Shown here: in pieces, positions 2,176-41,835 of the stretch
Layout: each line of letters opens with the position of its first letter
Numbering within the stretch: the stretch's first letter is position 1
Assembly: GCA_963848445.1 (NCBI GenBank)
Contig: CAWKDT010000001.1
Location: 330,667-394,666, forward strand
Source of the DNA: Candidatus Dormiibacterota bacterium
GTDB taxonomy: Bacteria; Chloroflexota; Dormibacteria; Aeolococcales; Aeolococcaceae
Reading direction: 5' to 3'
Length of the DNA stretch: 64,000 bases
The notes under the pieces: generated by a model
What the model saw: the letters and a program-made list of their open reading frames with translations, nothing else
Databases searched by the model: none
Told to the model about the DNA's origin: nothing
Translations under genes and position numbers: made by a program

Positions 2176-3479
2176 GCCGAGCCCTCCTGGGTGCCGACGC
2201 GTCGCGCGCCGAGCGCCGCCGGCCTGCTCTGGGTGACGAAGAACGCGACGCATGCCGCGGTGGTGGTCAGGTATGCCGCTGTCGAGGCGACCGCGGCGCC
2301 CGCGATGCCCATCTTGGGGATCAACAGGAGGTCCAGGGCGATCGTGACGACGACACCCGCGGCGACACCCGTCGATGCCCTCCCCGGCATACCGTGGCCG
2401 TAGAGGTACGCGATGGCAACCGCCGCGACGCCCTCGCCGGCGAGACCGATGAGGAGGATGCATGCGGGGACCACGGCGGGCTTGAAGGCGCTCCCGAACA
2501 GGACGGGGATGACGACAAACGACAGCGCCGCCAGCGGGACGGCGGCGGCGGCGACGGCGAGTCCCGCGCGGCGCATGGTGGCACGCGCCGCGGCGCGCGG
2601 CGCGGCCCCGTCGCCACGCGCGAATCGTGGATACGCGACCCACAGCACCGCATCCGAGGGCTGACGGAGGAGTTCCGCGTATTTCGACGCCACCGCATAG
2701 ATTCCGAGCGCCGCCGGTCCCGCGACGAGGTCGACGATGATGAAGTCGAAGCGCAGGTTCATCAGCAACAAGACATTGCCGACCTGACCACGAATGGAGT
2801 ACCGCCATATCTCGCGGGCGAGGGCGAGGTCGATGCCGCCGCCATGTCGAAAGAACCCGCGCCGCCGCAGTCGCATGCCACCGATCACCGCCGTGCTGAG
2901 GCGCGAGGCGAGCAACGCGACGACGATGAGCGCGCCGTCGCGGAGTCCGGCCAGCCACAGCGCGCCGAAGGCGGGCAGGAACGTCGCCTCTTCGAGCAGG
3001 ATGATGAGGTTGCTGCCCGGGAGGTCGTTGTCGCCCTGACAGAATGACTTGAAGCTCGAGACCGCCATCTGGCTGAGCACGAGGATCCCGGTGAACGCGA
3101 CCATGCCCAGCCCGAGCTCCGGGAGGAGCAGGTGCCCGATGAGCGGCGACAGGGCGACCCATCCCAGGGCGCCGAGGACGGATCCACCTGCGGCGAGCCC
3201 GAGCAGCGTGGGAGGCAGGCTGCGTTGCTCGCCGCGCGTCCCTCCCAGGAAGTACGGCGCCGCGAGCGGCAGCCCGCCCGTGCCAAGGAACCCCGCGAGG
3301 GGCGGCAGCACCCGCAGCAGCGCGAGCGCGCCGACCCAGACGGGCCCGGCGGTGCGTGCCACGAGCAGCGTCGCCACTCCGACGGCGAACAGGGCGCCGA
3401 CCCGGGCGCCGAGATTGGTCAGGACCAGCCGGGCGCCACCGCCACGGATGAGCGCCACGCGAGCGCCGGCGAATTTCAT
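2172..3479 (-). CDS. Polysaccharide biosynthesis protein / Wzx-type flippase (MOP superfamily)
   Basis: About 12 predicted TM segments with a typical Wzx C-terminal region. The start 'MKFAGARV' overlaps the upstream stop in an ATGA. Confidence 0.75.
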   Translation of the reverse strand: MKFAGARVALIRGGGARLVLTNLGARVGALFAVGVATLLVARTAGPVWVGALALLRVLPPLAGFLGTGGLPLAAPYFLGGTRGEQRSLPPTLLGLAAGGSVLGALGWVALSPLIGHLLLPELGLGMVAFTGILVLSQMAVSSFKSFCQGDNDLPGSNLIILLEEATFLPAFGALWLAGLRDGALIVVALLASRLSTAVIGGMRLRRRGFFRHGGGIDLALAREIWRYSIRGQVGNVLLLMNLRFDFIIVDLVAGPAALGIYAVASKYAELLRQPSDAVLWVAYPRFARGDGAAPRAAARATMRRAGLAVAAAAVPLAALSFVVIPVLFGSAFKPAVVPACILLIGLAGEGVAAVAIAYLYGHGMPGRASTGVAAGVVVTIALDLLLIPKMGIAGAAVASTAAYLTTTAACVAFFVTQSRPAALGARRVGTQEGSA

Positions 3480-4759
3480 GCGCTGCGCTCCACGCCCCAG
3501 ATGCTCACCGCCGCGACGACCGCGAGCGCGGTCCACACGTAGTCAAAGTGCAGCAGCTCGTAGATGTTCGCCGTGATCGCGTAGGCCACGAGCAATCCCA
3601 CCAGCGCGCCCGGATGGCGCAGCACCGCCGCGAAGCGAGACTGGAGCGGGCCCAGCACCCGGCGTGCGTTGAAGGCGATCACGAGCAGCAGCAGGAACAG
3701 ACCGATGCCACCGATCAGACCGCGCTCCGCGATCGAGGCGGTGAAGTCGCTGTGTGCTTCAAACGCCACGCTCGCCTGTTGCGCCTGCAGGGTCGGCTTG
3801 GTCGCGCCGGGTCCGATGCCGATGAGTCCGCCATGTTCGACGAGCGCGAGCGTCTCGTGCAGCAGCGTGTCGCGACCCGCGGTGGTCTGTGCGAATCGGC
3901 CCACGTAGTCACGCAGCAGCGGGGTGCTCGCCGCCGCATCGTTGACTACGGTGTTGATGTTCACCTGGGAGCCGATCACCCCGCCCACGAGCACGACTGC
4001 GCAGGCACCCGCGATCGTCGGGACGACGCCGTACCGCCGGGCCATGGCGATGCCGGTCGCCACCGCGCACGCGGCGAGGACGGCGATCGAAAAACCGTTC
4101 GAGCCGGTGAAGACGATCGCCGCGAGCAGGAGGGCGCCCGCCCCCACCCTCGCGATCCGGCGCCGCGGGGTCGCCGACGCCCAGACGATCATCAGGCTCG
4201 AGGCGAAGTACCCGGCCGCGATATTGGGATCGCCGAACGTGATCGAGGCGCGGTTCCCCTCGCGTGCGGTGATTCCCGACAGCACGTCGATGTTGGCCAG
4301 CGCGCCCAGCAGCATCAGACCCGCCCACACCAGGCTCGCGTATGCCCAGGTTCGCAGCACCGGGGACAGCCCGCCGGGAGTCCGGCATATGGTCACGACC
4401 GTGGTGCTCCAGGCGAGGAGAAACAGGTCCTGCAGCACGGCGAGCAGCCCGCTTCCGGGATAGACGCTGAAGAACGAGGCGATCAACCCGCCGAGTGCCA
4501 TCACGCCGACGGGCACCACGTACGGCACGCGAATGGGCAGGCGATCCGCGAGGGCCCAGCACAACGTCGCCGCCATGGACAGGGCCATGAGGCAGTCGGC
4601 GGGGGCGACGTTCCCGGGACCCGAGGGCTGGAGAAACGGCAGGATCGCGATGGCCGCGCATGTGGTGCCGACGGCCAACCGGCGCCACGGCAGCAGGGCG
4701 GGCCGCGCCGCCATGCGCCGGGGCAGCACGAGCCGGCGGTCGAGCACCATCGCCATCAC
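3476..4759 (-). CDS. O-antigen ligase/polymerase-like membrane protein (Wzy/WaaL family)
   Basis: A multi-TM protein with an O-antigen-ligase-like periplasmic loop ('FTGSNGFSIAVLAA'). It sits between the flippase and a kinase. Confidence 0.65.
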   Translation of the reverse strand: MMAMVLDRRLVLPRRMAARPALLPWRRLAVGTTCAAIAILPFLQPSGPGNVAPADCLMALSMAATLCWALADRLPIRVPYVVPVGVMALGGLIASFFSVYPGSGLLAVLQDLFLLAWSTTVVTICRTPGGLSPVLRTWAYASLVWAGLMLLGALANIDVLSGITAREGNRASITFGDPNIAAGYFASSLMIVWASATPRRRIARVGAGALLLAAIVFTGSNGFSIAVLAACAVATGIAMARRYGVVPTIAGACAVVLVGGVIGSQVNINTVVNDAAASTPLLRDYVGRFAQTTAGRDTLLHETLALVEHGGLIGIGPGATKPTLQAQQASVAFEAHSDFTASIAERGLIGGIGLFLLLLVIAFNARRVLGPLQSRFAAVLRHPGALVGLLVAYAITANIYELLHFDYVWTALAVVAAVSIWGVERSA

Positions 4760-5781
4760 GCAGCTCCGGGCAGTGCCGCGGACGGCATGCGAGCCAGCAC
4801 ACGCAGGTGGTCGCGCGCGAAGCCGTCGTCGTCGGCTCGCGCCGCCACCTCCGCAACGCCCGCAACGACGGCATCGCGCCAGAGTTCCCCGGGCACACCG
4901 AGACGGCGCATGCCGAGGCGGAGGAAGGCACGCAAGAGATCACAGATCCACCCGTCACCGTCCAGCAGGTAGTGGATGCCACAGCCCCAGGTGGTGGCGC
5001 GGAGGCCCGGATGTCCGGCCACCGACGCTCCCGGACGGGTGTGCCTGTCGAGGTAGAGAGCGTACGTGAGCGCAAACCTGGCAAGGTCGCGCAACGGCTC
5101 GCCGCGCAACTCGGCCTCCTCCCAGTCGACGACACCCGTCACCGCTCCGTCGCCCACCAGCACATTGCCGCACCAGAGATCGCCGTGGACGGCGGTGCGA
5201 GGCGCGCGGTGACGCCGCAGCGTCGCGCACGCGTGCTCCACACGGGCGAGCACCTCCGGCAGCTCGGGTTCGCCGCGAAAACGTTCGCGCAGACGCTGCA
5301 CCGTCCCACCGTCCATCTCGACGCACGCCTCGCCGTCCGCGGTCTCCTGATGAAACCGGCTGAGCCACTCGGCGACTGCGCCGAGGTCGCTCGCGACGCG
5401 GCGCGGCGACCGCGTATGTCTCCAGCGGTGGTAGAGCGTCGTCATCGGCGTTCCGGGGAGGAGCGTGAGCACCATCGCGTCGAGACCACCGGAGCTCACG
5501 GTCTCGAGCGGCAGCGGCGCCGTCGACCGGATGACGCTCGAGCCGAGGTTGTGCAGCGCATCGAGCATGCGCCGCTCGCGCGCCACCGCGGCGGCGCCGG
5601 CCGCGGTCGTCGGCACCTTGACCGCCAGACGCGGCAGCCGCGGATCGTCCGGCAGCACCAGCACGGTCACCTTGCCGTTGGGATCGCGCGACGCGCCCAG
5701 CACCGCCATGCGCACGCTCGGGTCTCCGACGATGTCCAGGAGGTCGCGGCGGGATCCGGTGACCGCCGCCATGGCGGTCAT
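4756..5781 (-). CDS. Phosphotransferase-family kinase (APH / choline-ethanolamine kinase fold)
   Basis: Brenner motif 'HGDLWCGNVLV' and a downstream 'VVDWEEA' (DxE/D) motif typical of the APH/ChoK superfamily. Confidence 0.7.
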   Translation of the reverse strand: MTAMAAVTGSRRDLLDIVGDPSVRMAVLGASRDPNGKVTVLVLPDDPRLPRLAVKVPTTAAGAAAVARERRMLDALHNLGSSVIRSTAPLPLETVSSGGLDAMVLTLLPGTPMTTLYHRWRHTRSPRRVASDLGAVAEWLSRFHQETADGEACVEMDGGTVQRLRERFRGEPELPEVLARVEHACATLRRHRAPRTAVHGDLWCGNVLVGDGAVTGVVDWEEAELRGEPLRDLARFALTYALYLDRHTRPGASVAGHPGLRATTWGCGIHYLLDGDGWICDLLRAFLRLGMRRLGVPGELWRDAVVAGVAEVAARADDDGFARDHLRVLARMPSAALPGAA

Positions 5782-6200
5782 GCGCGCCAGCCGACCGCGA
5801 TCCGCGAGCGCAGCAGGCGGCGTGCCGGCTTGAACCGCCCCGCCACACCGCCGGCGCGGAGCAGGGCGGCGGCCGGACCGGCGAGTCGCACCAACCCCGG
5901 GGGGACACTCAAAAACGCGCTGCAGAGCAGCGCCAGCGGCACCGCGTCGTCCTCGACGAGGTACGCGGGCGACGCCGCCGACGGAAGCGCGATCAGCTCA
6001 CGAGTGACACGGACACCGGCGGCGCGGGCCAGCGCATGCACAGAGGTGCTGCTGCCGCGCAGGACCACACCACGTCCTCGAGGCAGCGCGCGCAGCCTGG
6101 CGGCGGCAGCGTGGCGGGCGCGGCGCCCGCGCGGCACGTCGACGACCACCGCGTCCGCCGCGGTGAGCACCTGGTATCGCTGCGCCCACGTCGCGTTCAA
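5778..6200 (-). CDS. Hypothetical protein (Ala/Arg-rich, 140 aa)
   Basis: It is translationally coupled (4-nt overlaps) to both neighbours within the operon. No recognizable motif was found. Confidence 0.4.
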   Translation of the reverse strand: MNATWAQRYQVLTAADAVVVDVPRGRRARHAAAARLRALPRGRGVVLRGSSTSVHALARAAGVRVTRELIALPSAASPAYLVEDDAVPLALLCSAFLSVPPGLVRLAGPAAALLRAGGVAGRFKPARRLLRSRIAVGWRA

Positions 6201-7654
6201 TTCATCCCCGCGATCGGTCGCATCCGGGCGACGGGACGGACGATGCCGTTGCGGACCAGGATGTCGAGCCCGGCGGTGACGCCGCGGTCATCCAGGTGCG
6301 GCACGCGCTCGGGAGCCGCGGTGTCGTAGCGGAACCTCAGCGTCGACCGTCCCTGCGGATCCACCGCGGAGAGCCCGCGCTTTTCGAAATCGGCGATGAT
6401 CGTGCCCGTTCCGTGGCACGTCGTGTGCAGGGTGGCATCGGCATCGTCGCCCGCGACGCAGAGGAAGGAGGACGTGCGGTTGGACCCTGGAAGGAGCACC
6501 GGTTGACCGGTCGTGGCAAACACGGGGTGCGCTGCCATCATCGCCGCGGGAAACGCGCGTGAGGAATTGTGGCGGTGCATCACGACGCTCTCGCCGCGCA
6601 GCTCCTCCTCGTACATCGAGTCGTGCGGCGAGTCGACGATGAGCCGGTCGCGGTTGATCCCCAGCACCTCGCGCGCGATGCCGCGCAGGGCCGCATACGT
6701 GGCCAGGCGGAACGCGAAGCCGTAGTTCATCGCCAGCGCGTTGGCGAGGAGCAGGCGATCGCCCTCGGAGCTGTGGCGCGGCACTGCCGGACAACCATCG
6801 CGGAAGTAGAGGCCGAGCCTCGCTCGCAGGTCCGCGACCGAGCGCGCGGAGGCCAGGTGGTACAGGGGCTTCTCCACCGCCATCACCGCACGATGCTTGC
6901 GCGGATAGTCGATACGCCGCCCGAACAGGCGCCCGATCGCACCGGTCAGGATCCCTCCGCCACCGTGGTACTGCAGCGTGAGCTGGCCCGCCACGATCCC
7001 CAGCCGGCGCGCCGTCTCCGGCTCGTAGATCTCCTCGACACGCTGCAGCTCGATGAAGTGGTTGCTGGGACCGATGATCCCGAAGCGGAAGCGCGACAGC
7101 TGGATGAGCAGCCAGGGGAGCTGCCGTCGCGCGCGGTGGATGCCGCCATACGCGTCGAGGTCCAGCCGGCCTCCCTCCTCGATGCGATCGAGGTCGGCGG
7201 CCGCGATGCCATACCGCTCGGCGGCGAAGCGGGCGCCGTCGAGGGCGCACCGCGCAACCTCATCCGACGACAGGTCAAAGCGGTTGCCGGACGGGTACGG
7301 CAACCGCTTCCGGACGCTGTCGAAGAACGCAGCCAGGGCGGTATCGGATGGCTCGTCGGTGTCGAACGCCATCAGCGCCATGCCGCAGTTCACGGCCGCG
7401 CTCGTGAGCGTCGGACGGATCGTCTCGCGCGTTGCGATGGCGATGCTCGACGGCATCTCGACGTTGCGCTTGTGGTGGAAGTCCGGGAGCACCACCGGCG
7501 GCGCCGCGAGATCCATGCCGCGCACGGATTCCTCCAGGCGCTCGACGAGCGCCGCATCGGCCCGCGTGTCGTCGCTCTCGAACACCGACGGCTTGGAGGT
7601 GCTTCCACCCCGGTACGAGGTGACGGGCAGTGGCAGCGCCGGCGCGGCCATCAT
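6197..7654 (-). CDS. RtcB-family (RNA 3'-phosphate ligase-like) protein
   Basis: 'IGPSNHFIELQRVEEIY' matches the RtcB 'GSGNH[FY]xEIQ' motif. The N-terminal 'PDFHHKRN...AAVNCGM' region and C-terminal 'CHGTG' resemble the RtcB metal-site motifs. The chosen start is the internal ATG-ATG overlapping the upstream stop (ATGA). The 104 aa upstream in the ORF track is an Arg-rich GTG-initiated extension. Confidence 0.7.
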   Translation of the reverse strand: MMAAPALPLPVTSYRGGSTSKPSVFESDDTRADAALVERLEESVRGMDLAAPPVVLPDFHHKRNVEMPSSIAIATRETIRPTLTSAAVNCGMALMAFDTDEPSDTALAAFFDSVRKRLPYPSGNRFDLSSDEVARCALDGARFAAERYGIAAADLDRIEEGGRLDLDAYGGIHRARRQLPWLLIQLSRFRFGIIGPSNHFIELQRVEEIYEPETARRLGIVAGQLTLQYHGGGGILTGAIGRLFGRRIDYPRKHRAVMAVEKPLYHLASARSVADLRARLGLYFRDGCPAVPRHSSEGDRLLLANALAMNYGFAFRLATYAALRGIAREVLGINRDRLIVDSPHDSMYEEELRGESVVMHRHNSSRAFPAAMMAAHPVFATTGQPVLLPGSNRTSSFLCVAGDDADATLHTTCHGTGTIIADFEKRGLSAVDPQGRSTLRFRYDTAAPERVPHLDDRGVTAGLDILVRNGIVRPVARMRPIAGMN

Positions 7655-8640
7655 GCGCACGTCGACCGCTCCGCCGCTTCGAGAATGTGGTGCAAGCGCA
7701 GCTCGCAGTGCAGGGGCAGACCAACCTCCACGCAGGCAAGGCGCCGGGTGATCGTGGCGGACGTCTCGGCGATCGCGGGATGGATGGGGCCGAGCCCGGT
7801 TGCGGTGGCCACGGTCGCGGCGAACTCCCAATACCGCCGCAGCTCCCCGGCCATGTACGTCCCACCGGTCAGCGAGCGCGCCGCCGCGATCGAGCTGCAT
7901 TGCGTGACGGCCAGGGCGCCGTCCACGCTGCGCCGGAGCACGACGACGACGTCCGGGGTCAGGCACGCGGCGCGCTGCGGTAGCGCCGTCTCACGCCGGC
8001 CATGCGGCATCCGCCGGCCCGTGGCTCCCTCGACACGGACGGGCTCGACCACGCCCCAACACTGCGTGCCGTCGCTGACGCAGAGGTTGTCGGAGGTCGC
8101 GACCCCACCCTGGCGCAACTCGCGCATGAGCAGCGTGGTCTTGCCGGCACCCGCGGGACCGGCGAGGAGCATCGCGCTGCCCCCGGCACCGAGCACCGCC
8201 GCGTGGAGCGGCACCGCGCCGCGGGTCGACGCCCACCACATCGCCGGGTACTGCAGGAGCGCGGCGCGCACCAGGAGGTGGAAACGCGCACGCAGCGCCA
8301 TCGAGGCACCCCGCGTGGCCGGCGGGGGCCGCCAGCGGTAGGTGATCACCGGACGGTCGTCGATCACGCTGAGTCGCAGGTCGAACCCCGAGGTGCAGAC
8401 GTCGCGCATCACCAGGTCGCCCGCACCGGCCCATGCGGACCGCGACAGCGGCGTCAACCCGGACGTTTCGAAGGCATCGCGTGAGCGCTCGACTCGGATG
8501 GAGAGCTGCGTGGGTCCTGCCGGAACCGCAGCCTCGGGCCTCATCGTGTCCGCGCAGCATTCGGCCAGGAGCCGGGCCACCCAGGGCAACTCGCAGTCCA
8601 CTCCGACGCGCACGCCGGCGGTGCTGACCACGGCTTGCAT
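7651..8640 (-). CDS. HPr-kinase-related P-loop kinase (HprK C-terminal-like domain)
   Basis: Walker A 'GPAGAGKTT' is followed by 'SDN' and a Gly-rich segment, as in HprK-related kinases. There is no HPr-kinase N-domain. Confidence 0.55.
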   Translation of the reverse strand: MQAVVSTAGVRVGVDCELPWVARLLAECCADTMRPEAAVPAGPTQLSIRVERSRDAFETSGLTPLSRSAWAGAGDLVMRDVCTSGFDLRLSVIDDRPVITYRWRPPPATRGASMALRARFHLLVRAALLQYPAMWWASTRGAVPLHAAVLGAGGSAMLLAGPAGAGKTTLLMRELRQGGVATSDNLCVSDGTQCWGVVEPVRVEGATGRRMPHGRRETALPQRAACLTPDVVVVLRRSVDGALAVTQCSSIAAARSLTGGTYMAGELRRYWEFAATVATATGLGPIHPAIAETSATITRRLACVEVGLPLHCELRLHHILEAAERSTCA

Positions 8641-10134
8641 CTACCAGTCGTCCGGGTAGGGAGCGACCGCTGCCATAGGGTCGCCGACGGTGGGCCGATA
8701 GCCGGGAACGAGCATGGCGAGGCGGCGACGCACCTCCGCCATGTTGTTCGCGCTGCTCGCCGCGAACAGTTGCTGCACCGCGGCCTCGAAGCCCGCGGGC
8801 GGCTCCGTGTTGGTGCGTGAGCTCCAGATCTTGGGATGGGCGGTCGGGGTGCGTTCCTCGTTCTCGCTGACCAGTATCTCGTCGAGCTTCTCGCCTGGCC
8901 GCAGCCCGGTGAACCGAATCACCACGTCGTTGGTGCGATGGAGTTGCTCGGTGTACGCGCGCACCAGGTCGACGATCAGCACCGGATCGCCCATGTCGAG
9001 GACGAAGACCTCTCCGTCCGACGCCATCACAGCCGCTTCGAGGACCAGCCCGACGGCCTCTTCGACGGTCATGAAGAAACGGGACACGTCGGGGTGGGTG
9101 ATCGTGACCACCTCCCCCTTCTCGATCTGCGACTCCAGGACCGACAGGAGGGAGCCGCGGCTGCCGAGGACGTTGCCGAAGCGAACAGATGCGATCCGGG
9201 TGTCGCGGCCGGCATAGGAGCGAAGGATCATCTCGGCGAGGCGCTTGGTCGCACCAAGCACCGAACTGGGATCCGCCGCCTTGTCGGTCGAGATGAGGAT
9301 GACGCGTTCCACTCCCGAAGCAACGGCGCACTCGATGATGTTGTACGTGCCGGCGACATTGGTCTTCACCCCCTCGCACGGGTGGCGCTCCAGGAGTGGA
9401 AGATGCTTGTGGGCGGCCGCATGGAAGACGACCTCCGGCCTCAGCTCGGCGAACAGTTGCTGCACCCTTCTGCGATCGCGGATGTCGGCGATGATGATGT
9501 CGTCCGAATCGAGCAGGCCGTGTCCGCGCAGCTCGAGCTGCAGGCGATGCAGGTTGGACTCGTCGTGATCGAGCATGTAGAGCGCCGCCGGACCGAAGTG
9601 ATCGATCTGGCGGCAGAGCTCGCTACCGATGGACCCGCCTGCTCCGGTCACCAGGACGCGGCGCCCGGCGATGACCGAGCGCGACGACGAACGGATGACA
9701 TGCACCTCGTCCCGGCCGAGCAGCGTGTCGACGCGAACGCTGCGCAGGTCGGAGATACGCACGTCGCGCTCGAGCGCGGAGACGAAGGACGGCAGGAAGC
9801 GGACCATCAGCCCGACGGAATGCGCGCGGGCAGCGATCGCGGCGATGCGCCGGGGCGACAGCGAGGGGATCGTCACGAGCGCCACGTCCACGTCGTTCGC
9901 CACCGCCACGTCGGCCATGTCGCTGATGCTGCCGAGCACCGGCAACCCGGCGACCTGCCGCCGGTGCGGGTTGTCGTCGAGGAAGCCGATCGGTGCCAAG
10001 CCGTACTCGGGCACCCTCCGGAGCGCGTGCGCCATCGTCCGGCCCGCCTCGCCGGCGCCGATGAGCAGCGAGCGCAGCGCCGCCGAGCGCACGCGTGGTT
10101 CCGGCGCGATGCGACCTTCCAGCTCGAGCATCAC
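8641..10134 (-). CDS. Nucleotide-sugar 4,6-dehydratase/epimerase (CapD/PglF/WbpM family polysaccharide biosynthesis protein)
   Basis: An N-terminal Rossmann-like region is followed by a second 'VLVTGAGGSIGSEL' NAD site and a YxxxK dehydratase core. Confidence 0.85.
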   Translation of the reverse strand: MMLELEGRIAPEPRVRSAALRSLLIGAGEAGRTMAHALRRVPEYGLAPIGFLDDNPHRRQVAGLPVLGSISDMADVAVANDVDVALVTIPSLSPRRIAAIAARAHSVGLMVRFLPSFVSALERDVRISDLRSVRVDTLLGRDEVHVIRSSSRSVIAGRRVLVTGAGGSIGSELCRQIDHFGPAALYMLDHDESNLHRLQLELRGHGLLDSDDIIIADIRDRRRVQQLFAELRPEVVFHAAAHKHLPLLERHPCEGVKTNVAGTYNIIECAVASGVERVILISTDKAADPSSVLGATKRLAEMILRSYAGRDTRIASVRFGNVLGSRGSLLSVLESQIEKGEVVTITHPDVSRFFMTVEEAVGLVLEAAVMASDGEVFVLDMGDPVLIVDLVRAYTEQLHRTNDVVIRFTGLRPGEKLDEILVSENEERTPTAHPKIWSSRTNTEPPAGFEAAVQQLFAASSANNMAEVRRRLAMLVPGYRPTVGDPMAAVAPYPDDW

Positions 10135-11315
10135 TGCACACCCACCGCATCCGCAACGGCTTCACACACGCGGTCGACGTCTGCGTCGCTGAGGCGCGGG
10201 TGCATCGGCAGCGACAGGACGCGATCCGCGGCCTCGTCCGTTCCCGGAAGCAGCCCCGCGTGGTCGCCGAGCGTTTCCCGGAAATAGCTGAGCTGATGCA
10301 CCGGGATGAAGTGCACCGAGCACCCGATGCCGGCGTCCTCGAGGTTCGCCGCGACGGTGTCGCGACACGTGCCGCGCCCGCCCTCGATCTGGACCACGAA
10401 GAGGTGCCACGCATGGCGCCCGTCGGAGGACTCGATGGGCAGGAGCACGCCCGCGACCTCCGCGAGGAGACTGCGATATCGCTCCGCGATCTGCTCGCGC
10501 CGAGCCTGCCAGGCCGGCAGATGCCGCAGCTGGGCCCGGCCCATGGCGGCGGTGACATCGGTCATGTTCGCCTTGATACCGGCAACTTCGATGTCATACC
10601 GCCAGGTGCCACCCGGGAGGTACCGCCGCCAGGCGTCCTTGCTCATTCCGTGGAGCCGGGCGCGGCGAAGATACGACGCGATGAGGTCGTTCTCCGTCGT
10701 GACCATGCCACCCTCGCCGAGCGGGAGATTCTTGGTCGCATAGAAGCTGAAACAGGTCGCTCCGGACACCGTGCCGATGTCACGCCCCCCCGGCGCGCGC
10801 GTCCACAACGCGTGGGCGGCGTCCTCGACGACGAGATCCAGCGGGAGCCCTGCGGCATCCGCCAACGCGGCGACATCCGCCGGTGCTCCTCCGTAGTGCA
10901 TCACCACCATCGCACTCGGTCGCGGACCCCGCCCGGCTGCGGCGGCGACATGCTCCGGTGTGGGCATCAGCGTCCGCGGATCGACGTCGACGAGGACGGG
11001 CTGCAACCCGGCCTGAAGAATCGCGTGCACCGCGCCCGCGAACGTCATGGACGGTGTGAGGACGCGCGACCGCGGGGGGAGATCGAGGGCGCGGAGCGCC
11101 AGCTGCAGACCGGCGGTGCACGACGACACCGCAACGGCGTGCCGGGCCCCGACCACGGCCGCGAACTCGCTCTCGAATGCGCCGACCTCCGGGCCCGAGG
11201 TGACCCAACCACCGCTCAGTGCTCGGACGGCGGCCGCCCGCGCGTCGGGCGTGATATCCACAACGCAGAATGGGATCGGCTCGGGCCGGGACTCGACGGC
11301 TGCGACGGCGGTCAT
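10131..11315 (-). CDS. DegT/DnrJ/EryC1/StrS-family PLP-dependent sugar aminotransferase
   Basis: Typical family sequence 'FSFYATKNL' with the PLP lysine in a 'SFxxxK' context. It overlaps both neighbours by 4 nt. Confidence 0.85.
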   Translation of the reverse strand: MTAVAAVESRPEPIPFCVVDITPDARAAAVRALSGGWVTSGPEVGAFESEFAAVVGARHAVAVSSCTAGLQLALRALDLPPRSRVLTPSMTFAGAVHAILQAGLQPVLVDVDPRTLMPTPEHVAAAAGRGPRPSAMVVMHYGGAPADVAALADAAGLPLDLVVEDAAHALWTRAPGGRDIGTVSGATCFSFYATKNLPLGEGGMVTTENDLIASYLRRARLHGMSKDAWRRYLPGGTWRYDIEVAGIKANMTDVTAAMGRAQLRHLPAWQARREQIAERYRSLLAEVAGVLLPIESSDGRHAWHLFVVQIEGGRGTCRDTVAANLEDAGIGCSVHFIPVHQLSYFRETLGDHAGLLPGTDEAADRVLSLPMHPRLSDADVDRVCEAVADAVGVQ

Positions 11316-12589
11316 GACACCAACACCGCGGAAGCCTGGTCTCCCGCGACCTCGCCGTTTCCCTGCTCAGGGATCGCGGCGTTCGTGGCATCGCCGCGCC
11401 GCCGGTGCCATCCCATGGGCCGCCGGCGGGGCGCGATGATGGCACCGAGAATCGAAACTCCCTCGCTTCCACGAAGCTCCGCTGCCTCATCGATCGTTCG
11501 CAGCGGCAGCACCGGGGGAACCACGACCACCAAGGCGCATCGGGGATTGACCGCTTCCACGGAAACGGCCGCACGGATGCTGAATGAGGGACGCCCGGCG
11601 GCGCGGACCACCTCGGGCTTGGTCGCCTGGAGCCGCCGCGCGACGTCGCTCAAGTCCTCGTCCCGGTTCCAGAGGAGCACCGTCGAGGCTCGGACGTGCT
11701 CTGCAGCGCGGCGGACCCGCGCGCTGATCACGAGGACGTTCGATCGGCTTGCGTCCGCGGTCATGACGCCGAGCACCGGTGCTCCCAGGGCCCGCTCGAT
11801 CGCTTCGCGGCCCACGAGCGTCGGCCGCAGTGATTCCAGCAATGCGGCGAGCGCAACGCCGACGATGAGACCCGCGAGCGCGCCCAGGATGAGGTCGAGC
11901 GGCAGCCGCGACGGGTCGGCCAGCGTCGGCCGGGTTGCCGGCGCGATCACGCCGGCGCCCACGCTCTGCGCAATCTGTTGCTGGACATCGGCGCGCTTGG
12001 TGATCAGCGCGGTCATCTGCTGGGCGTCATCACTCTGCCGCGCCAGCAACGCCGCGGCGGTGGGGGAGTTCGGAGCAGCCGTCGCGAGCTGCAACTCGAC
12101 GGTGTCGATATCCGCGCTGAGCCCAGTGATCTGAGCCTGCAGCTGCGCCTCCAACTGCTCGCTCGGTTGCCGCTGTTCGGCGTTGATGGTGGCCACCGCC
12201 CCGGAGGCGAGGGCGTTGGCCACCGAAGCGGCGACGCGCGCGTCGGTGTCCGTCACCGACAGCTCGAGGATGCTCGAGTCGCTCAGCGACTGTGTGTCGA
12301 TCTCTCGCGCGAACTTCACGATGTCGCGTACGGCGCCGGCATCGGCGAGCGCCGCTCTGATGCGGTCCGGGCTTGTCACGATCCCCTGAACGGTGCCGGC
12401 AAGAGCGGACGCCCAATCAGCGGTTTGGGGGACGCCCCCACCAAGGACGAGTCGCTCCGACGCGGTGTAGGTTGTCTTCTCGAAGACCCTGTGCACGGTG
12501 AATCCGGCCGCAAGACCTGCGACGAGGCACGCAAGGATGATCAGCCCCCGGACTCGAAAGATGCGTTGCGCCGCTTCACGGATTTCCAT
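11312..12589 (-). CDS. Polysaccharide chain-length determinant (Wzz/PCP family) with degenerate C-terminal BY-kinase-like domain
   Basis: An N-terminal TM and a Q/A-rich coiled coil precede a second TM ('LDLILGALAGLIVGVALAALL'). The C-terminal ~170 aa has no Walker A. Confidence 0.65.
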   Translation of the reverse strand: MEIREAAQRIFRVRGLIILACLVAGLAAGFTVHRVFEKTTYTASERLVLGGGVPQTADWASALAGTVQGIVTSPDRIRAALADAGAVRDIVKFAREIDTQSLSDSSILELSVTDTDARVAASVANALASGAVATINAEQRQPSEQLEAQLQAQITGLSADIDTVELQLATAAPNSPTAAALLARQSDDAQQMTALITKRADVQQQIAQSVGAGVIAPATRPTLADPSRLPLDLILGALAGLIVGVALAALLESLRPTLVGREAIERALGAPVLGVMTADASRSNVLVISARVRRAAEHVRASTVLLWNRDEDLSDVARRLQATKPEVVRAAGRPSFSIRAAVSVEAVNPRCALVVVVPPVLPLRTIDEAAELRGSEGVSILGAIIAPRRRPMGWHRRRGDATNAAIPEQGNGEVAGDQASAVLVS

Positions 12590-12629
12590 TCCTGGTTACT
12601 CTGCGACCCCTACCGAACGGTTGACGTCT

Positions 12630-13406
12630 TCAATTAACTCTGTACAAAGCGCGCATCGCGCGCATCGGCACCGCGGATGAGCCCACGCTCACCCGTTTGC
12701 GGTAGTCACCATGCTCGCCGGGCGTTGCGCTCGGCCCGGCGATTCCGACCACGGACGGCCTCACGCCGCACCGGAACGCGAAGTGGACTGCCTCGAGGCT
12801 CGAGTGAACACCGAGCTTCGCGTAACAGTTCTGCGTGTGCGTTCGGATCGTGTTCCGGCTCACACCCAGATGCCTGGCGATCGCATCACGATCGATGCCG
12901 GCGACCATGCAGTCGAGCACTGCCCGCTCGCGCTCGCTCAACCGCAACAGACGCGCCCGGTCCTCCTCGCGGTCCGAGCGACGCGCCTGGAGCCCGCGGA
13001 TCACCGATGTCAACATCCGCGGCGGGACCGAGATCTCGTCGGACATGGCATCGCGAATCGCCTGCACCAGAGTGGCGGTCGAGGAGTCCGCTGCGACCCA
13101 CGCGTGAGCGCCTTCGCACAGGCAGTCGCACACGATCTGAGGATCTTCGTCGTCGCCGATCACCACGACTCGCAGGTCGGGCAGCGCCTCGCGAAGCCGC
13201 CGCGTCAGGTCGGATGCGGCGACGCCGTACGAGAGCGCCCCCATGACCACGACATCCGGCCGCATCACCTGCGCGGCCAGGCAGGCCTGGGCATCCTTGT
13301 TCGCGGTCCCCAGGATGACGATTCCCTCCTCGGACGCCAACCGCATGGCGATCGCATCGCCGACCAGCGGTTGCCCGTCGGCGATCAGCACCCTCACCCC
13401 ACTCAC
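12630..13406 (-). CDS. LuxR/NarL-family transcriptional regulator with atypical (pseudo-)receiver domain
   Basis: It has a C-terminal LuxR HTH. The receiver-like N-domain has Gly at the phospho-Asp position ('VVVMGALSYG') and lacks the conserved Lys. It lies 40 bp upstream of wzz. Confidence 0.75.
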   Translation of the reverse strand: MSGVRVLIADGQPLVGDAIAMRLASEEGIVILGTANKDAQACLAAQVMRPDVVVMGALSYGVAASDLTRRLREALPDLRVVVIGDDEDPQIVCDCLCEGAHAWVAADSSTATLVQAIRDAMSDEISVPPRMLTSVIRGLQARRSDREEDRARLLRLSERERAVLDCMVAGIDRDAIARHLGVSRNTIRTHTQNCYAKLGVHSSLEAVHFAFRCGVRPSVVGIAGPSATPGEHGDYRKRVSVGSSAVPMRAMRALYRVN

Positions 13407-13857
13407 CGCTCAACCATCCCCCAAGGCCGCGCCGTCCACAACCGGCGCCTGCATGAGGTGTGCCTCCCTCAAATGCACGACGACGGCTGTCTCCGGGCGC
13501 TCATCCGCTCGGCGTATCCCTCAAATGATGTAGACGCGTACATCATCCGCAGGACAACCGGGCGTAGACCGCGGCGCGCCGGCACTCACGCGCTGGCCAT
13601 TTGCCTTGCTTTGTGGCCTAATATAGGAGCGAGACAATTTGGCGTCCAGGCGGGGGGAGAGCCGCCGGAAACGCAGGGGGGCGACGAAGGGGTATGCCAT
13701 CGAGGGCAGCGGGGGATTGCCGCACGGGCGATTCACCTCGGATCAGGAAGGGTCGGCGACCATTGGAGCAGGGCGTGGATGCCACGCTCGCAACAACGAG
13801 CCGCCGTTATCGCAGGCGGACGCCGTGCGGACCGCCGCGCTCACGAGCTCGATCGAC

Positions 13858-14562
13858 GTGAGACTCGTTCTGTGTGACCGTCACCGGCTGTTCGCGGAGT
13901 CGTTCGCCCAGGTGCTCGAGACGCTCGGACACGACGTCCGCCTGGTCAACTCGCCGGAGGAGACCATCGACGCGGTCCTCGCTCAGCCCGCTACCGATGC
14001 CTGTCTCCTCGAGGTTGAGTACGGCGATCACCGTGGCCTGGCCGCGGTGCAGACGCTGCGTGGAGAGCATCCTGGTATTCGTGTGGTGCTCCTCTACGGC
14101 CGCGATGATCCGCGGCTTCTCGACTGGATGATCGCGGCCGGCGTCACCGGCGTGATCTCCAAGGCGCACGGCCTTGACAAGGTCATCGTCACCCTCGCAC
14201 GGCTGATGAATGCGGAACCGAACGATCGCGCGCATGCGCGTCTCATGTGTGTACCCGCCCGAAGCGTCACCCGCCGTCGGGAGCGCTCGATCAGCGAACT
14301 CACGCCGCGAGAGCGCGAGACGCTCCGGTTGCTGGCCCTCGGTCACAGCACTGGTGCCCTCGCGCTGGCCATGGACGTCAGCTATGCCACCGCGCGCACG
14401 CACATCCAGAACGTGCTCGCCAAGCTGGAGGTCCACTCCCGGCTTGAAGCCGTGGCAATGCTGCATCATCAGGACGGTGGTCCGGGTTTCAGAGAGACGC
14501 GTTTCGAGCGCCGGGCGATCGCCGTGCCGGATGCTCCTGAGGAAGAGCGGCTGATCCTCTGA
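13858..14562 (+). CDS. LuxR/NarL-family transcriptional regulator with atypical receiver (Glu at phospho-acceptor position)
   Basis: The LuxR HTH at the C-terminus carries 'LTPRERETLRLLALGHS'. In the receiver, 'LLEVEY' replaces 'LLDLxMP'. The proposed start is a GTG giving MRLVLCDRH. The Lys/Arg-rich upstream part of ORF 13639.. is probably not coding. Confidence 0.65.
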   Translation: MRLVLCDRHRLFAESFAQVLETLGHDVRLVNSPEETIDAVLAQPATDACLLEVEYGDHRGLAAVQTLRGEHPGIRVVLLYGRDDPRLLDWMIAAGVTGVISKAHGLDKVIVTLARLMNAEPNDRAHARLMCVPARSVTRRRERSISELTPRERETLRLLALGHSTGALALAMDVSYATARTHIQNVLAKLEVHSRLEAVAMLHHQDGGPGFRETRFERRAIAVPDAPEEERLIL

Positions 14563-14785
14563 CAACACCACGCGTTGCGCGGGGAACGGGACCAACGCCG
14601 GTGCGGTGGCACGCGTAGCCGGCGCGGATTGTTGTAGTTTGGTCACGGATCGGTAACACGCCCTGGGACGGCGCACGTCTGAGCGCCGCGGCGGTTCTAG
14701 GTTGGGCGCGCCGGTAACCAGCAGATTGCGCTCAGCCGCGAACCGGCGTTGCCGAGGGTGCGTCGGTTGCCACAAGGAGATCGCG

Positions 14786-15841
14786 ATGACGGCGAGTCCG
14801 CGGCAGGTCCTCGGCCTGGTCCTCGTGCTGACCACCGCCGGCGTGGCCGCGTGGCTGCTCGCACACGGTCCTCCCTCCGTGGTTGCGGCACCGGTGGACA
14901 ATGCGCCGTCACATCAACATCAGCGGCCCTCACCCACGTCCACACCCACCGCCGAACCGTCGCCGCCACGCTCCACGTCATCGCCGACGCCGGCGCCGAC
15001 GCTGACGCCGGCAATCATTCCCACGAGCGCCCCGACGCCGCCGGCAGTCCCATCGGCGACCCCGTCGTCCACGCCGGCGCCGACGCGATGGCCGGTCACC
15101 GGCCTCCATTACACGGCCAACGGCAACTTCGGCTCGTCCGGTCAGTATCTGCCCGGTGCCGATGGCTTCAACCTGGCGGACGTCAGCTCCGTGTCGGTCC
15201 TGGACGCACTGCCGGCCGGCACCGACGGTCTGGTGTGGATCGGATCCTGCGAAGGCTCGGACAGCACCTTTCAAGCGATGGTCTCGCCGTTCATCGGCAA
15301 TCCCAGGCTGTTCGGTTTCTACGTGGTGGACGAACCCGACCCGTCGACATGTCTCGCAGCCAACCTCAAGGCCGAGGACGATTGGATTCACGCCCACGTT
15401 CCTGGAGCCCGAGCGTTCGCGATCCTCCAGAACGTCGGCTCGTCCGACGAGCCGACGTTTGCCGGCACGTACACGCCACAGAACTCAGACCTCGATCTGA
15501 TCGGCCTCGATCCCTATCCCGTGCGTTCTGAGCTGCCCTCCCCCGATTACGCGGCGATCAGCGGCTATGTGCGCGCGGCAGAAGCGGCGGGTTGGCCGCA
15601 GCGATCCATCGTCCCCGTCTACCAGGCGTTCGGCGGCGGCACGGAGAACGACGGTGGGGGTGGGCACTGGTCATTGCCCACGGCTGCCGAGGAGGCGGCG
15701 ATGCTCGCGGACTGGTCCGGCGTCGTGCCCACTCCGGTCTTCGACTACGCGTACTCCTGGGGCACGCAGTTCGGAGACACCGCGCTGAGCGAGAGTGCGT
15801 CGCTGCAGGCAGTGTTCACGGCGAAGAACGCGGGCCGGTAA
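14786..15841 (+). CDS. Secreted protein with Pro/Thr/Ser-rich linker and C-terminal globular domain of unknown function
   Basis: An RBS 'AAGGAG' lies 7 nt before the ATG. The N-terminus has a signal anchor ('LGLVLVLTTAGVAAWLLA') followed by a PT-rich linker. The C-terminal domain contains 'FYVVDEPD' and 'GLDPYP'. Confidence 0.6.
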   Translation: MTASPRQVLGLVLVLTTAGVAAWLLAHGPPSVVAAPVDNAPSHQHQRPSPTSTPTAEPSPPRSTSSPTPAPTLTPAIIPTSAPTPPAVPSATPSSTPAPTRWPVTGLHYTANGNFGSSGQYLPGADGFNLADVSSVSVLDALPAGTDGLVWIGSCEGSDSTFQAMVSPFIGNPRLFGFYVVDEPDPSTCLAANLKAEDDWIHAHVPGARAFAILQNVGSSDEPTFAGTYTPQNSDLDLIGLDPYPVRSELPSPDYAAISGYVRAAEAAGWPQRSIVPVYQAFGGGTENDGGGGHWSLPTAAEEAAMLADWSGVVPTPVFDYAYSWGTQFGDTALSESASLQAVFTAKNAGR

Positions 15842-15853
15842 TCCGACGCGGGG

Positions 15854-17203
15854 TCAGCTGGGCGGGGGGGCCAGTGGCGGCGCCGGGGGCACAATCGGTG
15901 TGCCGCCGCCGCCGATGGAGGTCGGGCCGTTGTTGGTGACGATCGAGAGGTTGGCGAAGATGGTTTGGATGTCGTGCGCCCATGTCGCATCGGCGCCCGG
16001 GGTACAGGTCTCGAACGGAAAGCCCCCCCATGCCGTGTCGAACTCGCCCGTTTGCTGAACGACGCACGTGCTGTTGACGACGTCGGCGACGCTGCCGGTG
16101 GGACCGTACTCCGTCACGATGTTGTTGACCGATCGATGCGCGTCATTGGCGATGTACGCGCCGTAGTCCTGGAACGCCTTCGCCAGGATCACGCCGGGTT
16201 GCGTTTCGAGGCCGAGGCTGTTCAGGTCGAGCGACGCGGGCAGTGCCAGGAGCGAGCCCATGGTGAGGTCCGGGTTGGTTCCCGTATAGGTGGTGGCAGA
16301 TGCGTAAGGATCGCAGACCGTCGCGGGCCAGCGCGGACGTGTCAACGCGCTGCCGGCGTAGTAGAGGTTCGTCGCGTCGACGTCGATCTGCAACGCATGG
16401 TCAATTGCACCGCCCGGTACGAGCTCACCGAGCCGGATAGCCCCACCCAGCGCGGAGAGATGGCTGCCGCCGTCCCAGCCCGACACGCCGTCCCCGTACA
16501 GGTCGCCGGGTACAGGATCGAGCGGTTGGTCAAGCGTGCCGTCGGCGAAGCCGAGGCAATGCGCGAACGGTTCACCCTGGATCAGGGTCCGGCCGTCCGC
16601 GGCCACGGCAACCAGCGGCAGGTTGCTGGTCGATGAGGCAACGTAGAAATCGGCGGGAATGGGGGCGGTGGTGAGGAACGCGCCTGACGTGTCGCATCGT
16701 TGCCCGGATCCTCCCACCGCGCCCGCGGGGTTCTGGACGATGGTCATCGGCGACGCGGTCGGCGTCATCACGATGACATGCTGGTCGCTCACCAGCGTGT
16801 GTATCGCCGCCGGTATGAGGTTCGCCGGCTCGTACAAAGCGCCAGACCCGATCGGCATGTTCCAGATGGATGTGCTCGTGAACGGCTGCAGGAGCGGATC
16901 TCGATCGCCCTGCAGAACGAAGCCCTGCGACACCATGCCCCCCACGCCGACCGTCACGGTCTCCGGTGCGGGCGCGATGTAGCCCTTATCCACCACAGCG
17001 ACGATGTACCTGCCCGGAGACACGCCGCTGAACGTGTAGGCACCGCTGACGTCCGTCGTCGTTGTGCCGCCGGCGGTGCTCCCGCCGGTGCGCGTATACG
17101 TGACAGCCGCACCGAACACCGGCTGCGATGGCGTTTCCGTGTCGCTCACCACACCGCCGAGCCGGAACAGGCCGACGAGGACGACCATGAGACCGACCAC
17201 CAC
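15854..17203 (-). CDS. Membrane-anchored secreted protein with carboxypeptidase-regulatory-like (Ig-like) domain
   Basis: An N-terminal TM is followed by 'GAAVTYTRTGG...DVSGAYTFSGVSPGRYIVAVVDKGY', a CarbopepD_reg-like beta-sandwich. The C-terminal part is large and S/T/G-rich. Confidence 0.55.
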   Translation of the reverse strand: MVVGLMVVLVGLFRLGGVVSDTETPSQPVFGAAVTYTRTGGSTAGGTTTTDVSGAYTFSGVSPGRYIVAVVDKGYIAPAPETVTVGVGGMVSQGFVLQGDRDPLLQPFTSTSIWNMPIGSGALYEPANLIPAAIHTLVSDQHVIVMTPTASPMTIVQNPAGAVGGSGQRCDTSGAFLTTAPIPADFYVASSTSNLPLVAVAADGRTLIQGEPFAHCLGFADGTLDQPLDPVPGDLYGDGVSGWDGGSHLSALGGAIRLGELVPGGAIDHALQIDVDATNLYYAGSALTRPRWPATVCDPYASATTYTGTNPDLTMGSLLALPASLDLNSLGLETQPGVILAKAFQDYGAYIANDAHRSVNNIVTEYGPTGSVADVVNSTCVVQQTGEFDTAWGGFPFETCTPGADATWAHDIQTIFANLSIVTNNGPTSIGGGGTPIVPPAPPLAPPPS

Positions 17204-17214
17204 CGCGAGAAGTG

Positions 17215-17505
17215 CTACGAGCTCCGCGTAGTTGCCCGAGCCACTCTGGGCCAGGGTGCCGATACCGATGCGAAGAGCGGGGCGATCGTCGAATCGGCCC
17301 CCACTGACATCTGCGGGTTGGATCCGAACAGCGCGAACACCACCGTGCCGGCGATGAAGGCATACAGCCCCGTGATCGGAGGCATCTCAGCGAGGCGGGA
17401 CGTCGCGAGCTGCTCGGGCACGGCGATCACGAGCAGCGTCACCGCGGCGAGCGCGTCAGCAGACGCCCACCCGCGGCGATACCTGTGCAGTGACGAGAAG
17501 AGCAC
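17215..17505 (-). pseudogene. SulP-family sulfate/anion transporter, N-terminal remnant (~80 aa homologous, then out of frame and truncated)
   Basis: 'LAAVTLLVIAVPEQLATSRLAEMPPITGLYAFIAGTVVFALFGSNPQMSVGADSTIAPLFA' is a canonical SulP N-terminus. The ORF ends after 96 aa. The downstream space is occupied by an unrelated gene. Confidence 0.6.
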
Positions 17506-29657: not shown

Positions 29658-30056
29658 TTACTCCGACTCGATCGCACCCATCGTGATGCTGCCGTTCACG
29701 GTGCCGCCGTCGTCAACGCGCAATCTGGTGGCGCGAACGTCTCCGCGTACGACCCCGCTTCCGGAGACGCTCAGGCGTCCGCGGGCGACCACGTTGCCGG
29801 TCACGTTGCCGCGCACCGTGACGTTGCGACCATCGATGCTCGCGCGCACCGTCGCGGATCCTTCGACGTCGACGTCGCCTGACGCGCTGATCTCGCCGTC
29901 CGCGGTGCCCTCGATGTGGAGATCACCCTCGATGGTCAGCGAGCCGTTGAGCACGTCGCGCGGCCCGAGCGTGACTCCCTTGGCGCCCGCCGCGCCGTTC
30001 CGGTGACCGCCACGTGGAATGGACGCTTCCTCGATCTCGGTGATGATGTTCTCCAT
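29658..30056 (-). CDS. Bactofilin-family polymer-forming protein (DUF583/CcmA)
   Basis: A beta-helical repeat pattern, 'GDLHIEGTADGEISASGDVDVEGSATVRASIDGRNVTVRGNVTGNVVARGRLSVSG'. The start was set at the internal 'MENIIT'. Confidence 0.75.
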   Translation of the reverse strand: MENIITEIEEASIPRGGHRNGAAGAKGVTLGPRDVLNGSLTIEGDLHIEGTADGEISASGDVDVEGSATVRASIDGRNVTVRGNVTGNVVARGRLSVSGSGVVRGDVRATRLRVDDGGTVNGSITMGAIESE

Positions 30057-31601: not shown

Positions 31602-31696
31602 GGCTCCTTCGCTACGGCTCGGCGGACTGCGGTGTCGGTAATCGTACAAGTCCGCCCACCGACGGGGTCACGCGTCCACGTTACAAATCGCGCGGC

Positions 31697-41769: not shown

Positions 41770-41835
41770 GAGTTCCTTGTTTGGTCCCCTCGGCGGTCGA
41801 TCTCCCCGTCTAGCGTGCGGGACCCTGAAGGTGGC

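Follow-up and report, generated by a model that had tools for sequence, protein, structure and literature searches.

Two neighbouring, divergently oriented genes, regA (12630-13406, minus strand, 258 aa) and regB (13858-14562, plus strand, 234 aa), are described here from a 64-kb stretch of high G+C DNA (contig CAWKDT010000001.1; the whole stretch is called the window below) of Candidatus Dormiibacterota, an uncultured soil bacterium. Both genes encode NarL/LuxR-type regulators in which the phospho-acceptor aspartate of the receiver domain is replaced. RegA possesses an aspartate-less pseudo-receiver (D10 G11 G56 G84 A106) and RegB a Glu-type pseudo-receiver (D7 R8 E52 Y80 K102). The two proteins are probably phosphorylation-independent transcription factors dedicated to the adjacent glycan cluster. 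This reading is built on the domain architecture of both proteins, the substituted residues and their conservation in orthologs, purifying selection, synteny with the cluster, the lack of a kinase among the open reading frames (ORFs) scanned within 25 kb, and a conserved palindrome in the region between the genes.

Two NarL-type regulators with degenerate receivers

The regA and regB ORFs are real genes, with a third-codon-position G+C of 0.83 and 0.77, respectively, and with hundreds of homologs for each protein. Both were recovered at the coordinates given in an earlier note on this DNA. The NarL-like architecture described there, a receiver followed by a LuxR-type helix-turn-helix (HTH) domain, was confirmed by Pfam, NCBIfam, alignments to PDB chains and AlphaFold2. 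The Pfam GerE family (PF00196) scores 56 bits in RegA and 49 bits in RegB (cut-off 23.5), and the Response_reg family scores 36 bits in RegB and 27 bits in RegA, the latter below the gathering cut-off of 30.2. Both proteins align end to end with the NarL, MadR and MctR models of NCBIfam (E 1e-16 to 1e-25), at scores far below the equivalog cut-offs, and over their full length with the PDB chains of VraR, LiaR and NarL in HMMER (E 1e-12 to 1e-16). By sequence, their closest solved relatives are VraR/LiaR, NarL, DevR and EvgA.

In RegA, the receiver (about residues 1-125) is followed by a long linker helix (129-154), a GerE HTH (153-217; window 12756-12950) and a tail predicted to be disordered (220-258). 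In RegB, a disordered linker (119-143) connects the receiver (1-118) with the HTH (144-205). Single-chain AlphaFold2 models built from ortholog alignments (mean pLDDT 81.8 for RegA and 76.6 for RegB) show in both proteins a confident (beta-alpha)5 receiver of five strands and five helices and a four-helix HTH. Foldseek matched the models to LiaR, VraR, RcsB, EvgA, NarL and DesR, and additionally to VpsT in the case of RegA (ranks 28 and 41-43). The isolated RegA receiver superposes on the receivers of VraR and DesR at 1.8-2.2 Å (TM 0.87-0.89), and that of RegB on the receivers of VraR, MicA and PhoP at 1.7-2.7 Å. The tail of RegA (218-258; window 12630-12755, minus strand) has a pLDDT below 50, yet a motif, Y-x-KRV-R-x-GSS-x-x-PMR ... 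Y-R-I/V, is found there in close orthologs.

The receiver residues were aligned with those of E. coli NarL by gap-free HMMER alignments to the NarL, VraR and LiaR PDB chains and by MAFFT alignments with 120 homologs per protein. The MAFFT alignments were anchored on the E. coli NarL sequence, verified against the PDB alignment, and all alignments agree. D13 of NarL corresponds to D10 in RegA and D7 in RegB, D14 to G11 and R8, the acceptor D59 to G56 and E52, S87 to G84 and Y80, and K109 to A106 and K102. The Gly56 codon (13239-13241, minus strand) belongs to 'VVVMGALSYG' and the Glu52 codon (14011-14013, plus strand) encodes the first Glu of 'LLEVEY', with numbering from the GTG at 13858. In the AlphaFold2 models, strand beta3 spans residues 52-55 of RegA, with G56 directly after it, and residues 48-52 of RegB, where E52 ends it, so that both sit at the C-terminal end of this strand, which is the acceptor position.

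The start of regB bears on this comparison. Homologs of regB start with 'MRLVLCDRHRLF' (pattern MR(L/I)VLCDRHRLF), and conservation in a seven-locus nucleotide alignment collapses directly 5' of GTG 13858; because of both observations, this GTG is regarded as the best start. Starts at 13639 (a longer ORF) and at 13825 (from a metagenome gene caller) had no homology support, and the receiver domain is kept with every plausible start. An artefact of register or start codon was ruled out by the three PDB alignments, the two 120-sequence alignments, the predicted strand ends and the homology-fixed start of regB.

It can be seen that RegA has lost the acceptor aspartate (D), the Thr/Ser residue (T), the conserved lysine (K) and one metal-binding acid (the second of the acidic pair, DD2). 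RegB retains the Lys but has Glu in place of the acceptor, Arg where the second metal-binding acid would be, and Tyr at the T position. The earlier note had read Gly at the acceptor position and a missing Lys in the first protein, and Glu with a retained Lys in the second; these assignments hold in all alignments, and no conserved acceptor Asp emerged from the comparison with NarL receivers. The degeneration goes beyond what was noted, since the Thr/Ser position and the second acidic residue are replaced in both proteins as well. The catalytic quintet DD-D-T/S-K is therefore complete in neither protein (D-G/G/G/A in RegA and D-R/E/Y/K in RegB).

RegA and RegB are members of the NarL/FixJ family by descent and fold, not canonical response regulators. 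With Gly56 and Glu52 at the acceptor position and further losses at T, K and DD2, both agree with the definition of an aspartate-less receiver (ALR) (PMC12632262). Receiver phosphochemistry needs D, DD, T and K together (PMC12632262). The alignments thus support the view that neither receiver could act as an ordinary phospho-acceptor in His-Asp phosphotransfer; we infer the absence of phosphorylation because the catalytic residues are missing.

Evolution and conservation of the substitutions

The substitutions are, judging from their distribution among relatives, lineage traits and not errors. In the 18 closest relatives of RegA (62-98% identity) the acceptor is Gly in 17 and Ser in one, and all 18 have Gly at the T position and a residue other than Lys (Q, R, L, A, E or N) at the K position. 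In the next tier (P0017, P0019-21 and P0024-26; 44-63% identity) the acceptor Asp is retained, and T, K and the second acid are already gone. Relatives below about 45% identity mostly show the canonical DD-D-T-K. These graded relatives therefore place RegA at the endpoint of a stepwise loss, in which T, K and DD2 went first and D later.

A different path is seen for RegB. All full-length relatives down to about 40% identity (P0121-P0153) have 'CD(R/H)HRLF' together with the acceptor Glu and the Lys, and the nearest canonical relatives have 'CDDHRL ... D'. The change from Asp to Arg at the metal site and that from Asp to Glu at the acceptor thus go together. An acceptor Glu is present in 46 of the 120 best RegB hits, spread over several separate sub-groups, and within the subfamily it accompanies a second metal-binding acid that is replaced by Arg, His, Gln or Ser. 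This suggests repeated conversion to Glu-type pseudo-receivers in the RegB subfamily.

Selection was estimated by the Nei-Gojobori method from five or six Dormiibacterota orthologs, with dN and dS as the nonsynonymous and synonymous rates and pN/pS as the ratio of the corresponding proportions. For the receiver of RegA, dN is 0.150, dS 0.95 and pN/pS 0.25, and pN/pS is 0.18 in the HTH and 0.72 in the tail, which as a whole is only weakly constrained. For the receiver of RegB, dN is 0.141, dS 1.04 and pN/pS 0.23, with pN/pS of 0.13 in the HTH and 0.61 in the tail. The resulting dN/dS is about 0.16 (RegA) and 0.14 (RegB) for the receivers, and about 0.12 and 0.09, respectively, for the HTH domains. 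Purifying selection of this kind therefore indicates that the pseudo-receivers are functional and not decaying.

The contrary view, that the two genes are functionless remnants of response regulators in decay, has virtually no probability. Several catalytic residues are indeed lost in both proteins, and the Pfam receiver score of RegA lies below the gathering threshold. However, both ORFs are intact across many metagenome-assembled genomes (MAGs), the fold predictions are confident and the substituted residues are themselves conserved; pseudogene decay is ruled out by a receiver dN/dS of about 0.15 in both proteins.

When the RegA family alignment was used to scan GTDB species genomes, ten loci were returned, six of which are in Candidatus Dormiibacterota MAGs from peat and soil; these six include every match of at least 48% identity. 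All relatives from named genomes above 45% identity belong to Dormiibacterota MAGs.

Linkage to the glycan cluster

The glycan cluster (2172-12589, minus strand) lies downstream of regA on the same strand. From the regA side it contains genes for a coiled-coil protein with two transmembrane segments that resembles polysaccharide co-polymerases (PCP/Wzz-like, assigned from topology only; 11312-12589), a DegT aminotransferase (10131-11315), a PglF/CapD-like dehydratase (8641-10134), a hypothetical protein (7651-8640), an RtcB-like protein (ORF 6197-7966), an APH-family kinase (4756-5781), a Wzy_C protein (3476-4759) and a flippase (2172-3536), all on the minus strand.

The cluster order headed by a regA homolog is kept in the related loci L002, L004 and L005-L011. 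The position of the regB homolog differs among loci. It is divergent from regA, followed on the regA side by the PCP-like, DegT and PglF genes, in the window, in L005-L010 and in L001, a 255-kb ENA metagenome contig whose RegA and RegB proteins are identical to those of the window. In L004 it stands in tandem, upstream of the regA homolog. On the L002/L016 contig it is located at the opposite end of the cluster, past genes for a glycosyltransferase, Bac_transf, PIG-L and a formyltransferase. Divergent pairing is thus not essential, because in this last case the regB homolog sits at the far end. Because the linkage survives rearrangement in three arrangements, the cluster is taken to be the target of both regulators, and this is the strongest evidence available here.

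In the window, 40 bp separate regA from the first operon gene, compared with about 42-47 bp in five other loci, and the regA homolog of L004 runs 10 nt into the gene that follows it. No terminator-like site was found between regA and the next gene on that strand of the window. The earlier note had placed the pair directly upstream of the glycan operon. This is correct for regA as far as strand and the spacing of 40 bp are concerned, but regA looks like the first gene of the operon, co-transcribed with it, and not like a separate upstream gene.

The intergenic region and a candidate operator

The shared intergenic region (13407-13857), estimated at about 450 bp in the earlier note, is 451 bp long. 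In the nucleotide alignment of 7 loci, conservation is strong over about 170 bp adjoining regA and poor in the half on the regB side. The conserved part contains a perfect 8-6-8 palindrome, ATGATGTA-N6-TACATCAT, at 13525-13546. Its core pattern has one match in the 64-kb window, where chance would give 0.02. All 7 loci share an invariant TGTA-N6-TAC, and the base that ends the site is A or G (G in L005-L007). The size and symmetry of the palindrome are those expected for a dimer of GerE-type domains at NarL/LuxR sites. It is therefore a candidate operator, to which binding is proposed from sequence.

Apart from the palindrome, the minus strand has two exact copies of CATTTGAGGGA (13465-13475 and 13517-13527), whose starts are separated by 52 bp. 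One lies directly against the palindrome and the other overlaps the Shine-Dalgarno-like GAGGGAGG; at least two matches were obtained in 4 of 100 shuffles. A conserved inverted repeat (consensus CCTGCAT...ATGCAGG; 13410-13477, minus strand) encloses GAGGGAGG together with an ATG (13454-13452) that does not vary among the loci. This ATG begins an upstream ORF of 14 codons in the window (MQAPVVDGAALGDG), with its stop codon at 13412-13410, 3 nt before the start of regA. Across loci, the frame of this ORF relative to regA is 0, 1 or 2 and its length varies, including an in-frame fusion to regA in L008, and its peptide is conserved only through MQAPVV (MQARVV in two loci). A conserved leader peptide is unlikely given these frame differences and the lack of peptide conservation beyond six residues; since both frame and peptide vary, the constraint is on the nucleotides.

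A sigma-70-like promoter match facing regA (TGGACG-17-TATATT; 13620-13648, minus strand) has a TA-rich, -10-like element that is roughly conserved in other loci. It would put the palindrome, the CATTTGAGGGA repeats and the inverted repeat in a leader of about 200 nt. A structured RNA found no support in this region: the Rfam scan gave no match there, its only hit being a chance snoRNA outside (E 0.77), the RNAalifold covariation term is about 0, and the z-score of single-sequence folding (-1.6) is not significant. Either DNA sites or hairpins could account for the conserved inverted repeats.

RegA and RegB are paralogous, with about 31% identity over their C-terminal two-thirds, and have in common the recognition-helix motif T-x-R-T-H-x-Q-N ... 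A-K-L-x-V-H-S-x-L-E-A-V. The common helix fits a similar half-site specificity of the two proteins.

The following mechanism is proposed. As the product of the first gene of the glycan operon, RegA would bind as a dimer, through its GerE HTH, to the conserved block of palindrome and repeats 60-140 bp upstream of its own start, and thereby autoregulate regA and the operon, by activation or repression. RegB, with the same recognition-helix motif, would act on the same control region. Activity would be set by the amounts of each protein and by their dimerisation state, not by phosphorylation, and the pocket of RegB may be kept in one fixed state by its metal-site Arg and acceptor Glu, together with the retained Lys. 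The earlier note had likewise suggested phosphorylation-independent control of the polysaccharide locus. That the receivers are degenerate, conserved and linked to the cluster agrees with it, and the interpretation as a whole is partly borne out, with a locked-on/locked-off pair and ligand-binding pseudo-receivers, also suggested there, as conceivable modes of action.

Several points weigh against this reading. The last base of the palindrome varies between A and G, and its conservation is limited to the closer loci: the sequences upstream of more remote homologs (L002, L004, L011, L016 and L017) did not show it. It also lies downstream of the only sigma-70-like promoter match, and may thus serve as an operator, as an activator site or within an RNA leader. 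Near regB, no candidate site with conservation could be found. The RTHxQN helix also occurs in canonical relatives and throughout the subfamily, which makes it weak evidence for a shared target. Finally, a change from Asp to Glu, whether natural or engineered, is no dependable phosphomimetic, and ChxR is active after its Glu is changed (PMC4395418; PMC12632262).

RegA and RegB could be independent regulators that are linked only through serving the same pathway, with RegA autoregulating the operon and RegB running other genes of the locus, such as the gene for a 379-aa protein next to regB or the transferase and formyltransferase genes at the far end of the cluster. This is unlikely. Conservation is limited to the regA-proximal part of the intergenic region, the RegB homolog in L016 is at the other cluster end beside the formyltransferase, PIG-L and Bac_transf genes, and the 379-aa protein is a conserved neighbour. 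On the other hand, the recognition-helix residues are common to both proteins, the 379-aa gene is not oriented in the same way with respect to regB in all loci, and no conserved motif was found proximal to regB or to the 379-aa gene.

It is rather unlikely that the two proteins form an obligate heterodimer through their pseudo-receivers, a coincidence detector that controls the glycan promoter only when both genes are on. The linkage of the two families in three gene arrangements is suggestive only, and the near-identical recognition helices mean that the palindrome could host a heterodimer. Precedents are also available: WhiI, without the Lys and one Asp, works only when paired with BldM (PMC4125116), and RcsA-RcsB heterodimers control capsule genes (reviewed in PMC4125116). 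However, the candidate site has perfect palindromic symmetry in the window, whereas the composite BldM-WhiI site is non-palindromic (PMC4125116), and in L002/L016 the two genes are about 15 kb apart.

Kinases and other possible signals

The kinase scan took ORFs picked by codon-position G+C from 2-40 kb of the window, and the ORFs covered in all reach to about 56.4 kb. Those scanned within 25 kb of the pair included no histidine kinase, and none was found within 8-10 kb of the pair in L001, L002, L004, L005, L016 and L017. An adjacent cognate HisKA_3 kinase, which is usual for the NarL/FixJ family, is therefore not seen here. The nearest kinase is a HisKA_3 protein (42292-44052, minus strand), 28 kb from the pair and beside its own stand-alone canonical receiver. 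It belongs to a signalling cluster (38747-44052, minus strand) that also encodes a GGDEF protein, a PAS-PAS-HD-GYP protein and this receiver. A PAS hybrid histidine kinase (53723-56374, minus strand) is likewise more than 28 kb away, and both kinases have partners of their own. The earlier note, which had reported no cognate kinase nearby, is thus right for the scanned ORFs within 25 kb, with the addition that a HisKA_3 kinase does exist in the window.

HisKA_3 is the kinase class that partners NarL-type regulators. The presence of such a kinase in the window could mean that RegA and RegB belong to a two-component system, being phosphorylated on other residues or serving as kinase-binding decoys, and pseudo-receivers such as CmrT have been proposed to interact with two-component partners (PMC12632262). 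This is very improbable. The kinase adjoins its own canonical receiver in the GGDEF/HD-GYP cluster, no kinase is linked to the pair in related loci, and RegA is without D, T, K and DD2 and RegB without D and DD2.

Sensing of a signal other than phosphate must also be considered. RegA has a cysteine motif, Cys93-Asp-Cys95-Leu-Cys97, in helix alpha4 (13116-13130, minus strand), which lies on the alpha4-beta5-alpha5 output face in the model. The CxC motif is present in the RegA pseudo-receiver clade and absent from canonical relatives, and it could be a thiol or metal site. A redox or metal switch through CxC(LC), a small-molecule ligand or Ser/Thr phosphorylation would be compatible with the clade-specific motif on the output face and with the c-di-GMP signalling cluster in the window, and known pseudo-receivers are controlled by Cys oxidation (RitR, HP1021) or by ligands (PMC12632262; PMC5965902). 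Such sensing is nevertheless decidedly unlikely. The third Cys of RegA is variable (Ser in most orthologs), more distant members keep one or two Cys, and no redox or metal gene is found in the neighbourhood. A regular-expression search showed the VpsT c-di-GMP motif W[FLM][TS]R to be absent from both proteins. No Ser/Thr kinase was found among the scanned ORFs, and for the APH-family protein a role as a sugar or small-molecule kinase is more likely.

A combination of these ideas can be formulated as a kinase-free two-protein switch. RegB, with its pocket fixed by Arg, Glu and Lys, and RegA, with its CxC motif, would heterodimerise or compete at one palindromic operator, and expression of the glycan cluster, unusual in containing RtcB and APH genes, would be set by the ratio of the proteins and by a redox or metal cue at RegA. 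The probability of this proposal is low. If true, a module of two aspartate-less NarL-type regulators would be described for the first time, and Gly-type ALRs would gain their first functional model.

Comparison with known regulators

RegA and RegB belong to the known class of ALR/pseudo-receiver atypical response regulators and do not represent a new type of system. The earlier note implied a more unusual arrangement than the ALR survey suggests: Glu is the commonest replacement of the acceptor (26%) and Gly the fourth commonest (11%) (PMC4395418). LuxR/GerE outputs are about equally frequent among ALRs and canonical receivers, retention of the first acidic residue with loss of the second is the typical ALR pattern, and no characterised or structurally solved Gly-type ALR was present in this 2015 survey (PMC4395418). 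The pair resembles other ALRs in its replaced acceptor, its kept first and lost second acid, and its orphan status with a DNA-binding output. It differs in its make-up, a Gly-type NarL regulator that is conserved alongside a Glu-type one at a single cluster of an uncultured phylum.

Among NarL/LuxR-type proteins, BldM and WhiI of Streptomyces (PMC4125116) are similar orphan regulators for which phosphorylation is not required and which share one regulon as two proteins. Like RegA, WhiI is without the conserved Lys and one residue of the Asp pair. The pocket of BldM is intact, whereas both proteins are degenerate here; the bldM and whiI genes are not adjacent; and the only conserved candidate site here is palindromic, not a composite site of their kind. 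VpsT of Vibrio cholerae and CsgD of enterobacteria also consist of a pseudo-receiver followed by a LuxR-type HTH and control extracellular or matrix polysaccharide, as is presumed here. Neither RegA nor RegB has the c-di-GMP motif of VpsT (W[F/L/M][T/S]R), sequence identity is only about 17-18%, and VpsT and CsgD are single regulators without a partner. VpsT and CsgD (PMC12632262) and the RcsB-like SecR (PMC13199381) are further precedents within the NarL family.

In the RcsB-RcsA system of the E. coli colanic-acid capsule operon, two LuxR-type HTH proteins likewise act on a polysaccharide operon, and RcsA is a phosphorylation-independent, autoregulated partner. In contrast to the present pair, RcsB is canonical, phosphorylated and fed by a phosphorelay, RcsA is without a receiver-like domain, and the operon is not headed by a divergent pair of rcs genes. 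RegB can also be compared with ChxR of Chlamydia and with the plant pseudo-response regulators, in which Asp is naturally changed to Glu and activity is independent of phosphorylation, as is probable for RegB. However, ChxR is a member of the OmpR/PhoB family, and CCT domains are present in the plant proteins. The Glu of ChxR is dispensable for activity (PMC4395418), which means that Glu alone does not imply a locked-on state. Nothing relevant was found in the literature on Dormibacterota regulators.

Neighbouring genes

The predicted secreted protein of 379 aa with a Pro/Thr/Ser-rich linker (14702-15841, plus strand) has no family match, and no match to it was found in Pfam or among PDB sequences. 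Its gene neighbours the regulator pair in L002, L005, L009 and L010 with varying orientation, and it might be a glycan-processing enzyme. Within the glycan cluster, the genes of the RtcB-like protein (RNA-ligase family) and the APH-family protein stand between the sugar-modifying genes and the Wzy/flippase genes, and both are conserved in the longer Dormiibacterota loci (L002, L004, L005, L008-L010 and L016). An RtcB homolog inside a polysaccharide cluster is unusual.

Comparison of L001 with the window over 2172-17203 revealed apparent frameshifts in the genes for a 449-aa protein, the 379-aa protein, and the RtcB-like, PCP-like, Wzy and flippase proteins. The window and L001 seem to be differently polished assemblies or close strains. 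A 96-codon ORF (17215-17505, minus strand) resembles the N-terminus of a SulP-type sulfate transporter and looks truncated; it abuts the gene of a secreted protein with a CarboxypepD_reg domain (15854-17203) and is possibly what remains of a gene in a variable region. A class I methyltransferase ORF on the plus strand overlaps the two bactofilin genes that flank it (29658-30143 and 30999-31649, both minus strand).

Implications

How pseudo-receivers switch is an acknowledged open problem (PMC12632262). The regA-regB locus is a compact natural test case for it, in which a Glu-type and a Gly-type protein, visible evolutionary paths, a defined target cluster and a candidate operator are found together. 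The current view of two-component signalling is unchanged by these findings; the locus is a useful natural case and would be no surprise to specialists. For Candidatus Dormiibacterota, a widespread uncultured soil phylum, it offers a first handle on the possible regulation of surface glycans.

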